Origin: Escherichia coli
GTDB taxonomy: Bacteria > Pseudomonadota > Gammaproteobacteria > Enterobacterales > Enterobacteriaceae
Assembly (NCBI RefSeq): GCF_048403405.1
Contig: NZ_CP183129.1
DNA length: 64,000 bases
Strand: one strand, 5' to 3'
A program made the position numbers and the translations under genes. Of this stretch, positions 46,975 to 51,925 are shown one piece after another. Within the stretch, counting starts at the first letter, position 1; each line of letters begins with the position of its first letter. The notes beneath the pieces are model-generated. The model saw nothing but the letters and a program-made list of their open reading frames with translations. It made no database searches and was not told the DNA's origin.

Positions 46975-47738
46975 GGTGATGCCTCCAATTAGTTGAATTA
47001 AGGATATAATACTCGCTTTTAAGGTTGTTTCATGGTCACAGTTAACCTTCATTGTCCCCGTTGCCAGTCCGTTCAGGTTTACCGTCACGGGCAGAACCCC
47101 AAAAGACATGATCGATTCCGCGGCCGTGACTGTCACCGGGTATTTCAACTCAGTTACTGTTACGAGCCCCGTAAACCGGGAGTTAAAGACCAAATCGCTG
47201 AAATGGCTTTCAACGGTGCCGGGGTTCGCTATACTGCCCGTACGCTGAAAATCGGCATTAATACAGTCATCCGAACTTTAAAAAACTCTCGCCACGAAGA
47301 ATAACGTCATCCCCGGTCGCTCATGCTGATGTGGCACTCATCTGCGAACGTAGTCAGCAATGGAGCTTTGTCGGCAGTAAAGCGCGACAGCACTGGCTCT
47401 GGTACGTGTACAACACGAAAACTGGTGGTGTTCTGGCCTACACTTTTGGCCCCCGGACTGATGAAACCTGTCGTGAACTGCTGGCGCTGCTTACCCTTTT
47501 ACCATCGGCATGTTGACCACTGACGAATGGGGTAGTTACGCTAGAGAGTTACCAAAGGAGAAGCATCTGACTGGTAAGATTTTTACTCAGCACATTGAGC
47601 GTAACAATCTGACCCTGAGAACCCGAATCAAACGTCTGGCCCGCAGAACCATCTGTTTCTCGCGTTCTGTAGAACTTCATGAAAAAGTCATCGGTGCTTT
47701 TATCGAAAATATATGTTCTACTAATTGGAGTCATCACC
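46975..47738 (+). mobile_element. divergent IS1-family insertion sequence (about 764 bp)
   Basis: Terminal inverted repeats GGTGATGCCTCCAATTAG (46975) and CTAATTGGAGTCATCACC (ending 47738) resemble IS1 ends; the insA-like ORF (47032..47304) has the CPRC…C..C zinc ribbon; insB-like frames 47331..47516 and 47510..47824 are in different frames and one reads through the right IR. Confidence 0.75.
47032..47304 (+). CDS. insA: IS1-family InsA-like protein
   Basis: 90-aa ORF MVTVNLHCPRCQSVQVYRHGQNPKRHDRFRGRDCHRVFQ…NGAGVRYTARTLKIGINTVIRTLKN, clearly related to but divergent from K-12 InsA. Confidence 0.75.
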   Translation: MVTVNLHCPRCQSVQVYRHGQNPKRHDRFRGRDCHRVFQLSYCYEPRKPGVKDQIAEMAFNGAGVRYTARTLKIGINTVIRTLKNSRHEE

Positions 47739-47793
47739 CTTCTGATGAGCTTTCCTTGGATGATTACCAGACTGAATACACAGCCAAAGATTT

Positions 47794-48117
47794 TTACCTC
47801 ATTCTGCTCTTTTTTCTCAAATGACATATATTATATTTTACATCATATTCATAGGTATATGACATTCCCCCGCCCCCCATTATGTCATTGTGGGTTGATG
47901 TTGGGCTTTCATAAAAAAATACATCTTTTTTTGAACTAGCATTAATTATATTTACTTTATATATTAAAATATTTTCTCCATCTGGAAATATTTTAGCCAC
48001 ACAATATAAAGCAGCTAAATCCGAATTACTTAAAAATATATTGTCATCACTCATAACTCCAGCCATTAAATGACTGGAGACTAAAGCAAGGAAATAACAA
48101 CATTGTATTGCCTTCAT
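47794..48117 (-). CDS. putative immunity protein for the orphan Rhs C-terminal toxin
   Basis: Small AT-rich ORF starting one nucleotide after the orphan toxin stop (TAA-A-ATG, with GGGAG upstream); predicted start MKAIQCCYFLALVSSHLMAG is signal-peptide-like. Assigned by position only. Confidence 0.5.
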   Translation of the reverse strand: MKAIQCCYFLALVSSHLMAGVMSDDNIFLSNSDLAALYCVAKIFPDGENILIYKVNIINASSKKDVFFYESPTSTHNDIMGGGGMSYTYEYDVKYNICHLRKKSRMR

Positions 48118-48118
48118 T

Positions 48119-49378
48119 TTAATTACTCCCTTGCCTGATAATTGCAACTCCATTCCCTTTAGCTTTGGGATTATATTTTAGATAGGTGTTATTTGGTGTT
48201 CCCAAGTAACTACTGTATTCTTTTTTTCCCATTCCATTCATATAAGAATTCGTTAAATCTTTGCTTGAAAAATTTAGACTATCATAAACATCATTTTCTT
48301 TTGTTACTTTATTTCCTTTATCGTCAGAGTAAAAACCGTGAGTGTGATAATCACCTACTCTCTCTGAACCTTCAGGGCATTTTATATTTCGCAAGTCTAC
48401 ACTATCATTATCATTTGAACTTATCGGATTCATAGGGAAATATTCACCTTGCTTCTTACATATTAGTCCACCATATTCTTTATTCTTGTTAATTGATTCT
48501 CCATTACACATTGCCAATGCAAATATTCCAATATCATCTATATTTTTTGATTTAAATTCATATAATCCTAATGGATCCATGCCATTCACCGGGCTCAGCG
48601 GATATGTATACAGGTTCCATCCCCCCTTCAGCCCAATCGGATCCTGAGTGATATACCGCCCCTGCAGCGGGTCATAATAGCGGTGGCGGTTGTAATACAG
48701 GCCGGACTCCTCATCATACTGCTGACCCGGCAGGCGGATGAGCTGCTGCAGCTGATGCGGGTTCTCTTCATTCAGCTGGTTACCCCATTCATCGTATTCT
48801 GCGCACCATTCTGTTGCCCCTTCCGTGCTGACAAGCGCCAGCGGCAGGCCGCGATGGTCGCAGTGGTACAGGTGGATTTTTCGCGCCGGCGTGTACACCG
48901 GGTCCATCTGGTTTTGTATCTGCTCCACCGTCAGGCCGCACGATGCCAGCCAGCGGCGGCTTTCCTCGCTCACCCGGTCAGCCAGGATTTCACTTTCCAG
49001 CCGGTCGAGCATCTGCACCAGCACCGGCGGGAACACCACACTGCCACCGTCTTCACCGCCGGACTGCTGAAGCGCATCCGCCAGGCTGCGGCGCTGCGTT
49101 TTCGCCAGCTCACCGGTGGCAGTTTCAACTCTGATGAGTGGCGTGAAGCTCCCCGGCTGATAAACCGTCTGGATGCGGGTTCTGTCGTTCTGTATTGTGG
49201 TCAGCCGGTCGCCGTCCCAGCCGTACCAGGTCACTTCCGGTTTCCATGACAGCGACATCCAGCCCGTCAGGTCCCGTTCACGCCGCCATACCCGTTTTGC
49301 CACCCTGCGGCCCAGCAGGTCGTAAAGATAGCGACTTTCGACCAGCGGCTCTGCATATTGTGTCCGCGTGTAGTGCAC
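48119..49378 (-). CDS. orphan Rhs C-terminal module (core-end fragment plus alternative toxin tip)
   Basis: 419-aa ORF that begins inside rhs core sequence (…[30 protein letters not shown]…), passes the DPLGL demarcation and ends in an AT-rich unique tip (…[16 protein letters not shown]…). The track start is a GTG; core homology continues upstream to about 49620 with no ribosome-binding context. Confidence 0.85.
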
Positions 49379-49612
49379 CAGCCGGTGCCGGCTGTCGTAA
49401 TGGTACCGGTGAGTCCGCTCATCATCCGTGCGGATAACCCCTTCCGGGATGAGGTCGGTTTTCTCCGTCAGCCTGCCGTGACGGTCATACCGGTAAAGAT
49501 AGTGCGCGTCACGGGCGATACGGTTATCCGGCCATGCGCTGAGGGGGCTGTCCGGGTGCAGCTCCGGGTCGGGCAGGCGGTTGCCTGCCGGGTCCGTGGC
49601 ATACGGGATATC
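48612..49612. repeat. roughly 1 kb rhs core-end direct repeat (orphan copy)
   Basis: Near-identical to 52940..53940 (offset 4328 bp; only scattered mismatches by eye). Confidence 0.9.
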
Positions 49613-49654
49613 AATGCCCAGGTTACATATAATAATAAGAGCAATTAACTTAAT

Positions 49655-49981
49655 TTATTTGTTTATAATGCGCTTACTTAATACAAACCATTGAATATAC
49701 CCTCCTGACAGAAAATAAAGCCATATTATTATCGCCATAATATACTTACTATCAATCCTTACGCCAATAATGTCTGAAACAGTCCCTATAAATATTAGAG
49801 CAATAAAGAATACTATGCCTGTTGGAAAACAGATTACCATCATTCCATAAGACATGAGACTAATTAACTCGCTCACATCACGAGTGGAGTCTAATAGTGA
49901 AAGTCTATGCATGGAAAAGAATAGTATTAAAAGCGATAAAGCCAGCCATATAGCTCTGAATAAAAAAATAATATATTTCAT
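49655..49981 (-). CDS. small hypothetical membrane protein with three predicted TM helices
   Basis: 108-aa AT-rich ORF MKYIIFLFRAIWLALSLLILFF… inside the rhs island; function unknown. Confidence 0.45.
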   Translation of the reverse strand: MKYIIFLFRAIWLALSLLILFFSMHRLSLLDSTRDVSELISLMSYGMMVICFPTGIVFFIALIFIGTVSDIIGVRIDSKYIMAIIIWLYFLSGGYIQWFVLSKRIINK

Positions 49982-50085
49982 TACATCACTCCGGTGAATA
50001 CAAATCTAATAAAGCGTCCAATGTTATTTCCGGAGCACTTCATCTTACATGTTTCTAAAGAATCATTAGACCAGTCAGGGCAAGA

Positions 50086-51221
50086 TTACGAAAGCCCGCT
50101 CCCCGCAAGGACTGACGCGAGATAGTTTCTGTCCATGGCTGCTTTTCGCATCTTACGTCTTAACCCTGCCTTGAATACCTTATCATTCGTCAAAATATTA
50201 ATAGCAATGTGCCGTATCCCTGAAAATAATTCTGCTGCGTTTCCTCTTCTTATTTTGCAGTCGTCTTCATTCATTACCACGTCCAGACGCCAGTGCAGCT
50301 TATTCTCCACGTGCCAGTGGTTTCGGATTGCTGTGGCGAACTTCTCAGCGGTTAAATCAGCAGAGCTGATATAATATCTGACCGTCATTTCTGGCTCTTT
50401 CTTTTGTTCTGCTATTATTGACCGAAAGGAGACTGCCACGTATAATTTTTCAGTCCTTTCCATTCAAATGTAAAATCAATAAGTTCATCAGGGACATCGC
50501 AAACAATATGAAGACGGATTTCTTCTCTGCCGTGACTCTTTTCACTAATTGCGTAACTGTCATGCTCTGGATTAATTAATTCTTTCAGCGGAAATGTTTC
50601 CTCAAAGGCTTTATTCAGCCGCCCCTGGTTTCCTTTTACAGCGAATAAGTAATCACCACCCTGTTTTTGTATCTTCTCTGCAATATCTTTCTGGCAACCC
50701 ATCGCATCAGTTGTGATGATTTTCTCTTTAATATACAAAATGTTAAGAAGTTCAGGGATAGCTGTGATCTCATTAGATTTCTCATCCGTCCTGATCTGCC
50801 CCAGGACCAGAATGTGCATTGTTGAGAACGCACTAATGACATGAATCGCTCCCCTGCGGCGACTCTTGTCATAAGAATGCCGGAGTGTTTTTCCATCAAT
50901 TGCGATGACGTCTTTATCATCTGAAGTATGGCAATCTCGCATCCAGTTAATAAAGCACTCGTGAAATTTTGCAGGACTGATACAGGATACAACTCTGGCG
51001 ATGGTATCGTGAACAGGAATACCATTTTCAAAATCACCGTATTGTTTTAAAAAATCGAGATGTGTTTCCCCAAAATCCTCTATATCTTCCCAACCTTCTG
51101 CACCCGAAATAACGGCACAAATAGTCAACAGTAGAATATCCGATAATTTATGTTCCACTTTCCAGGCTTGTCTGTAATCGGGGATAATAGAAATATGCTC
51201 CATCAATTTTTTAAGTTCCAT
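50086..51221 (-). pseudogene. H-repeat-associated (ISAs1-family) transposase, split by a frameshift
   Basis: ORFs 50415..51221 (268 aa, [51 protein letters not shown]…) and 50086..50463 (125 aa, …[32 protein letters not shown]…) overlap in different frames and together resemble the roughly 378-aa K-12 H-rpt proteins. Confidence 0.7.
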
Positions 51222-51755
51222 TTTGTTCTCCTTAATTATGTAAGGAGTATTTGATCATGTATAAGCAATAAAAAACAGCTTTAGGTAATGAGGAATATCT
51301 CAATTTTCAAACATAAAATGCGAATTATTTAGTACAAAAAAGCAGCGTTACGTGATCTTTCCCTGGCATGTCATTAGATGAACCAGTTATACAACCCTCG
51401 GAACAGAATCGAGGTCCTAAAGACGGACCAAAAGCGTTTAAACAACTATGTATTGAAAATCCATTACGATTATAAGTTCCTGTATTAACTGACGGTACTA
51501 ATCGTATGCCGTCAGGTTTTCTATTGCTTGCTCCCGGGTCATTAACATTCCAACTCCATAGGCCTTGAGGTATTGGCCCTCTATTTATAAATGTGTACAA
51601 CGGGGATTATTTTTACATTGCATATTATTACCAGAAGCGACTGGAATACTAAGCACATCATAAAAATTATCATCACCTGGTATATCTGAAACACACGAAA
51701 GCATACCTAAAGTTATGCTGTATAAACAGGTGGCTAATCCCAAGGGGATCGATTC

Positions 51756-51925
51756 CAGAAATCGGGTTCAACGGATACTGATAAAAATTCCACCTACCTT
51801 CCAGCCCAATCGGAGCCTGAGTGTTATACCGCCCCTGCTGCGGTTAATGTTACCGATAATAGTTATAGTACAGCCCTGATTCATCATCATACTACTGCTG
51901 CGGCAGTCTGATGAATTATTGCTTT
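51756..51925. repeat. degenerate third copy of the rhs core-end segment
   Basis: CAACGGATACTGATAAAAATTCCACCTACCTTCCAGCCCAATCGGAGCCTGAGTGTTATACCGCCCCTG… aligns with the main core end at 52925-53090 with many substitutions and stops. Confidence 0.7.

Follow-up and report, generated by a model that had tools for sequence, protein, structure and literature searches.

A frameshifted ISEc1 (H-repeat) transposase pseudogene within an Rhs element of Escherichia coli

Main Finding

Within a stretch of Escherichia coli DNA of 64,000 nucleotides (contig NZ_CP183129.1 of assembly GCF_048403405.1, referred to here as the window), two overlapping open reading frames (ORFs) are almost certainly the two parts of a single transposase gene, belonging to a copy of ISEc1, an H-repeat of the ISAs1 family, and put out of action by deletion of a single G, in an allele that is inherited vertically. 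The lost G causes the encoded protein to end after residue 258 and 10 aberrant residues. An earlier, sequence-only reading of this DNA had offered three explanations for the split gene, namely a pseudogene, a sequencing error, and a frameshift-dependent gene. The first of these stands; the second is contradicted by 145 genomes, and the third is not supported, as frameshifting signals are lacking. The allele is already known: the RefSeq (PGAP) annotation describes the gene as "ISAs1 family transposase, frameshifted," and the copy is catalogued in the literature, having been listed as ISEc1 for strain 28Eco12 in a paper published in 2019 (PMC6963479).

Two Reading Frames from One Transposase

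The ORF list places on the minus strand a 268-aa ORF (ORF1) and a 125-aa ORF (ORF2), each beginning with ATG, which lie in different frames and share the 49 nt from 50415 to 50463 (Table 1), in agreement with the overlap noted in the sequence-only reading. Comparison with NCBIfam models demonstrates that ORF1 covers positions 1-233 (E 3e-87, 292.8 bits) and ORF2 positions 241-314 (E 1.4e-29, 103.3 bits) of NF033564, the 314-position model of the ISAs1 family transposase, with both scores exceeding its curated cut-off of 70 bits; the family model describes one continuous protein. Similarly, Pfam matches above the gathering scores assign DDE_Tnp_1_assoc and positions 3-116 of DDE_Tnp_1 to ORF1, and positions 139-200 of DDE_Tnp_1 to ORF2. 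The upstream fragment therefore holds the DDE_Tnp_1_assoc domain and the first part of the DDE domain, and the downstream fragment holds the last part of the DDE domain. Because the two ORFs fit consecutive parts of one family, the observation is real and the resemblance extends far beyond chance, and the earlier proposal that the pair represents one H-rpt transposase is borne out by both sets of models as well as by the yhhI alignment described below.

The sequence AAGGAG is found 7 nt 5' of the ORF1 ATG, and intact yhhI has exactly the same sequence throughout this start region. The first five residues of ORF2 (MERTE) are upstream codons read out of frame, and inspection of the sequence ahead of its ATG revealed no Shine-Dalgarno-like sequence, which makes independent translation of the downstream fragment unlikely.

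Table 1. Coordinates of the ISEc1 copy, its parts, and its neighbors, in positions of the window
Feature	Position	Strand	Content or basis
ISEc1 / H-repeat IS (ISAs1 family), 1290 bp	50076..51365	-	Homology limits and coordinates in PMC6963479
N-terminal transposase fragment (ORF1)	50415..51221	-	Residues 1-258 authentic, then 10 out-of-frame residues and stop
C-terminal transposase fragment (ORF2)	50086..50463	-	ORF residues 6-125 equal intact-protein residues 259-378
Inactivating 1-nt deletion site	50446..50450	-	Coding strand CTGAAAAATT; CTGAAGAAATT in all other aligned copies
Terminal inverted repeat, transposase-start end	51353..51365	-	CAGGGAAAGATCA, read on the minus strand
Terminal inverted repeat, transposase-stop end	50076..50088	+	CAGGGCAAGATTA, read on the plus strand
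Full rhs gene	52404-56633	-	ORF list and PGAP
sel1-repeat gene	51925-52392	-	ORF list and PGAP
Upstream flank: degraded Rhs core end interrupted by in-frame stops, then IS-cut toxin tip	51366..51900	-	
Downstream flank: last ~94 nt of K-12 rhsC-type toxin tip, N-terminal part missing	49981..50075	-	
ybfB, intact; small gene after rhsC in K-12	49655..49981	-	Alignment with K-12 rhsC 3' end

A One-Base Deletion Separates the Frames

Alignment with K-12 yhhI, the check that the sequence-only reading had recommended, located the indel: DNA identity is approximately 96% throughout the element, and the single 1-nt gap in the alignment lies inside the ORF overlap, where GGGCTGAAGAAATTATGC in K-12 yhhI corresponds to GGACTGAA-AAATTATAC in the window. 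Specifically, a G has been lost from CTGAAGAAATT, turning AAGAAA into a run of five A residues (T5 on the plus strand, 50446-50450). The homopolymer that had been suspected at this site is thus present, but it was created by the deletion itself (AAGAAA to AAAAA). All four of the other copies aligned, namely K-12 yhhI, K-12 ybfL, and two paralogues in 28Eco12, retain CTGAAGAAATT, and since they agree in this the window allele represents the derived state. An intact, single 378-aa ORF is found in three of the four (yhhI and both 28Eco12 copies), and 28Eco12, itself a carrier of this insertion, thus holds intact 1137-nt ISEc1 transposase genes elsewhere in its genome.

With one base put back, the ORF spans 378 aa and its product aligns with YhhI along the full length, without gaps, at 97% identity; residues 259-378, the last 120 of this protein, stand in the -1 frame of the window allele. 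It is the 1-nt deletion that deprives the window copy of the uninterrupted 378-aa ORF characteristic of ISEc1, and, judged from its sequence, the copy is a defective member of the ISAs1 family and not a different kind of element. The DDE triad, assigned by motif, would consist of D109, D172, and E306. As the Pfam DDE domain is divided between the two ORFs, the split parts D109 and D172 from E306, and on the basis of these motifs neither fragment is predicted to catalyze transposition. The element is a fossil, and its mobilization, if possible at all, would depend on transposase provided in trans from intact copies of ISEc1 elsewhere in the genome.

A separate feature of this region is a near-consensus sigma-70-like site on the plus strand (50418-50446), recognized by consensus match, in which TTGACC and TATAAT are separated by 17 nt and 11 of 12 positions fit. 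The promoter-like site is antisense to the transposase and ends at the T5 run, and its TATAAT stems from a substitution private to the window copy among the five copies aligned, the others reading CATAAT.

Signals of Programmed Frameshifting

Two overlapping ORFs could also constitute a functional gene if programmed -1 ribosomal frameshifting or transcriptional slippage fused their products, as occurs in the IS1 and IS3 families. The downstream frame required for such a fusion is indeed -1, the direction used by IS1 and IS3 elements, and the G AAA AAT sequence at the site of the deletion partly resembles A AAA AAC/G motifs. A scan of the overlap and its edges, however, found that none of 19 in-frame heptamers conforms to X XXY YYZ, the nearest being GAAAAAT, so that the 49-nt overlap contains no slippery heptamer. 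Nor was a stimulatory RNA structure seen in the 96 nt downstream, for which the folding energy of -16.1 kcal/mol is close to the mean of shuffled sequences (-15.5 kcal/mol; z = -0.20). Further arguments against recoding are that the two-ORF layout is unique to the window allele, yhhI and the two paralogues of the carrier genome being single ORFs, that the NF033564 model is continuous, and that the A5 run arose from the deletion itself. This run is shorter than those known to support transcriptional slippage, and the ISAs1 family is not known to use programmed frameshifting. A gene that depends on frameshifting is accordingly most improbable, although weak spontaneous -1 slippage may occur at G AAA AAT.

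An Inherited Allele Shared by Many Genomes

The frameshifted allele is widely represented among complete genomes. A search with a 1351-nt query around the gene gave perfect (100%) identity in eight complete genomes and an identity of 99% or more in 144 records, and an 81-mer spanning the deletion is found in identical form in 145 complete-genome records, with the corresponding repaired 82-mer found in none of the complete genomes searched. Additionally, junction-spanning queries demonstrated that each junction between the IS and its flanks is covered in 148 complete E. coli genomes. The carriers derive from humans, dogs, cattle, gulls, chickens, a mollusc, and surface water, and include the ST38 strains 28Eco12 and 266917_2 (PMC6963479). 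Essentially all complete E. coli genomes with this insertion between rpmE and yiiX/metJ have the deletion. Since the frameshifted 81-mer occurs in 145 independently assembled genomes and the repaired form in none, the deletion is a real, inherited allele and not a sequencing error; it is by this agreement with other assemblies that the allele in the window was validated.

It might nevertheless be argued that the gene is intact in the organism and that the missing base reflects an error of sequencing or assembly, given that an A5/T5 run is the type of site at which long-read assemblies err and that the assembly of strain SCU-109 differs in run length at this very site. Several observations render this explanation scarcely credible. 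Firstly, the identical 81-mer has been obtained by many laboratories from many hosts and countries. Secondly, the ancestral sequence is AAGAAA and not a longer homopolymer, such that a miscount would not yield the window allele. Thirdly, SCU-109 is a noisy assembly that reads T6 rather than the ancestral TTTCTT. This strain, the only one with a gapless near-match to the repaired 82-mer, was considered as a possible carrier of an undamaged allele at this locus and was rejected as assembly noise: besides the T6 run, its assembly contains 34 gap positions relative to the window over approximately 9 kb, and those displayed within the IS fall in homopolymer runs.

In the SCU-109 assembly (NZ_CP051733.1, 48048-60129), which is designated "complete," the annotation shows the IS as four fragments, and the gaps divide not only the IS but also the rhs fragments and a small partial CDS beside ybfB into spurious pieces. 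It should not serve as evidence for alternative alleles. TUM14771 differs from the window over the 9.2 kb from 47500 to 56700 by 23 substitutions and no gaps.

Element Boundaries and the Rhs Locus

Homology to the yhhI element begins and ends at the limits given in Table 1, with an ambiguity of about 2 nt at each end, and the homology of the "empty" K-12 flanks stops at the same points. The first matching bases are (GC)CAGGGAAAGATCA and the last TAATCTTGCCCTG(A). The 13-bp terminal inverted repeats CAGGGAAAGATCA and CAGGGCAAGATTA are imperfect, agreeing at 11 of 13 positions, and the one at the stop end overlaps the stop codon of the transposase. Elements of the ISAs1 family measure approximately 1.2-1.5 kb, a range into which 1290 bp falls, and generate target-site duplications of approximately 8-10 bp. 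The corresponding copy in 28Eco12, ISEc1 5069737..5071026, maps to the same limits by genome match and is reported with 8-bp flanks, AGACCAGT and GCATGTCA, that differ from each other; two other full-length ISEc1 copies of that strain are 1291 bp long (PMC6963479). The difference between 1290 and 1291 bp agrees with the loss of one base.

The element resides in an Rhs element located between rpmE/priA and yiiX/metJ. Along the minus strand the order is a full rhs gene, a sel1-repeat gene, a degraded core end with its tip, the IS, a tip remnant, and ybfB, beyond which lie an orphan rhs fragment with dsORF-f3 and then a copy of IS1H. The IS is therefore found among fragments of core ends and toxin tips that lie downstream from a full rhs gene, the setting of an Rhs accessory component, and the earlier placement of an H-repeat (ISAs1-family) transposase within an rhs element is supported by the family models, the yhhI alignment, and the PGAP context alike.

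The two flanks of the IS are both incomplete. The degraded core end upstream reads QQ*YDDESGLYYNYYR*H*..., and PGAP describes this flank as [quoted passage not shown] Its toxin tip gives a weak, sub-threshold match to a Tlde1 domain and is truncated by the IS at position 98 of the 120 in the profile. The flank is homologous to the K-12 region downstream of rhsA/yibG, where the counterpart tip runs uninterrupted into a frameshifted immunity pseudogene of the Imm57 type. The downstream flank, which aligns with the 3' end of K-12 rhsC, is described by PGAP as "hypothetical protein, incomplete, missing N-terminus."

Other features of the neighborhood also merit mention. A second orphan fragment, comprising an Rhs core end and toxin, lies on the minus strand at 48119-49378 and beyond, and over about 1 kb shares approximately 97% identity with the core end of the main rhs gene; it is followed by the small gene "dsORF-f3" at 47794-48117. 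The IS1H copy, approximately 3 kb from the ISEc1 copy, is flagged by PGAP as frameshifted, which is the normal programmed-frameshift layout of IS1.

A Probable Rearrangement at the Insertion Sequence

No target-site duplication adjoins the ends of the element, the flanks being AGACCAGT on one side and GCATGTCA on the other, and the two flanks are different truncated toxin tips, one from the region corresponding to that downstream of rhsA in K-12 and the other from the K-12 rhsC tip. Unrelated flanking tips and a missing target-site duplication together suggest an IS-associated rearrangement after insertion. From the sequence, the most economical reading would be either a deletion beside the IS or recombination of one ISEc1 copy with another: following its insertion, the IS would have taken part in one of these events, and the array of orphan tips would thereby have been reshuffled. 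Such an event would add one more case of IS-associated reshuffling in Rhs orphan-tip arrays, a known theme.

The 8-mer TCTAATGA flanks the IS on both sides at a distance of 5 nt (50063-50070 and 51371-51378), and a shared ACTGGT stands just beside it, within ACTGGTTCATCTAATGA upstream and ACTGGTCTAATGA downstream. This repeat was considered as a target duplication and rejected, as the "empty" K-12 sequences place both of its copies in native toxin tips. It could be due to chance, or could be microhomology that served in the rearrangement by which the two tips were joined.

Potential Role of the Truncated Product

Truncated transposase derivatives act as inhibitors or regulators in other IS elements, and it is conceivable that the 268-aa product, expressed from an intact promoter and Shine-Dalgarno sequence, serves as a DNA-binding inhibitor or regulator of intact ISEc1 copies. 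Such a role would be in keeping with the start region, AAGGAG included, that ORF1 shares with intact yhhI, with its retention of the whole N-terminal DDE_Tnp_1_assoc domain, with the presence of intact ISEc1 copies in the same genomes, and with the persistence of the allele in at least 145 genomes. Persistence, however, is equally expected of a neutral fossil in a clonal lineage, and the carriers, being more than 99.9% identical, provide no power to test selection. Moreover, transposition of H-rpt has not been observed (PMC3032704), which leaves little to regulate. A regulatory function of the truncated protein is for these reasons very unlikely, and it is just as doubtful that either this product, with its DNA-binding domain and incomplete catalytic core, or trace -1 slippage at G AAA AAT modulates the intact ISEc1 copies in the genome. 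If such modulation were true, it would help to explain the apparent immobility of the H-repeats of E. coli.

Consequences for Annotation

The fossil reading of this ISEc1 copy bears chiefly on annotation: a single pseudogene feature, "ISEc1 transposase, frameshifted," should replace the two ORFs, which should be counted neither as two genes nor as a candidate for recoding. Beyond annotation the finding matters very little. The deletion and the two junctions can be used as a lineage marker for the approximately 148 complete E. coli genomes with this Rhs arrangement.

Comparison with Known Systems

Literature searches for a family-level description of ISAs1 yielded incidental mentions only. The transposases of the IS1 and IS3 families, which employ programmed -1 frameshifting, likewise consist of a pair of overlapping ORFs, the downstream ORF being in the -1 frame. 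Unlike these, the window ORFs have no slippery heptamer, no stimulatory structure, and no two-ORF layout conserved within the family.

Close relatives are the ISEc1/H-repeat (H-rpt) elements associated with Rhs elements in E. coli, of which K-12 yhhI (H-rptB) and ydcC are examples. The window element has the same terminal sequences as the yhhI element in addition to the DNA identity described above and, as is the case for ISEc1/H-rpt of Rhs elements, occupies the downstream tip region within an Rhs element. In contrast to these elements, its transposase is split and the element is 1290 rather than 1291 bp long, and the site that it occupies, an Rhs element between rpmE and yiiX/metJ, is absent from K-12.

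Decay is also seen in ybfL, ybfQ, and ybfD, which lie downstream of rhsC in K-12, are annotated there as pseudogenes or inactive transposase, and are likewise decayed H-repeats inside an Rhs element. These were inactivated by other lesions, and ybfL retains the ancestral CTGAAGAAATT. Decayed H-repeats are common, and the Rhs element is the classical habitat of ISEc1.
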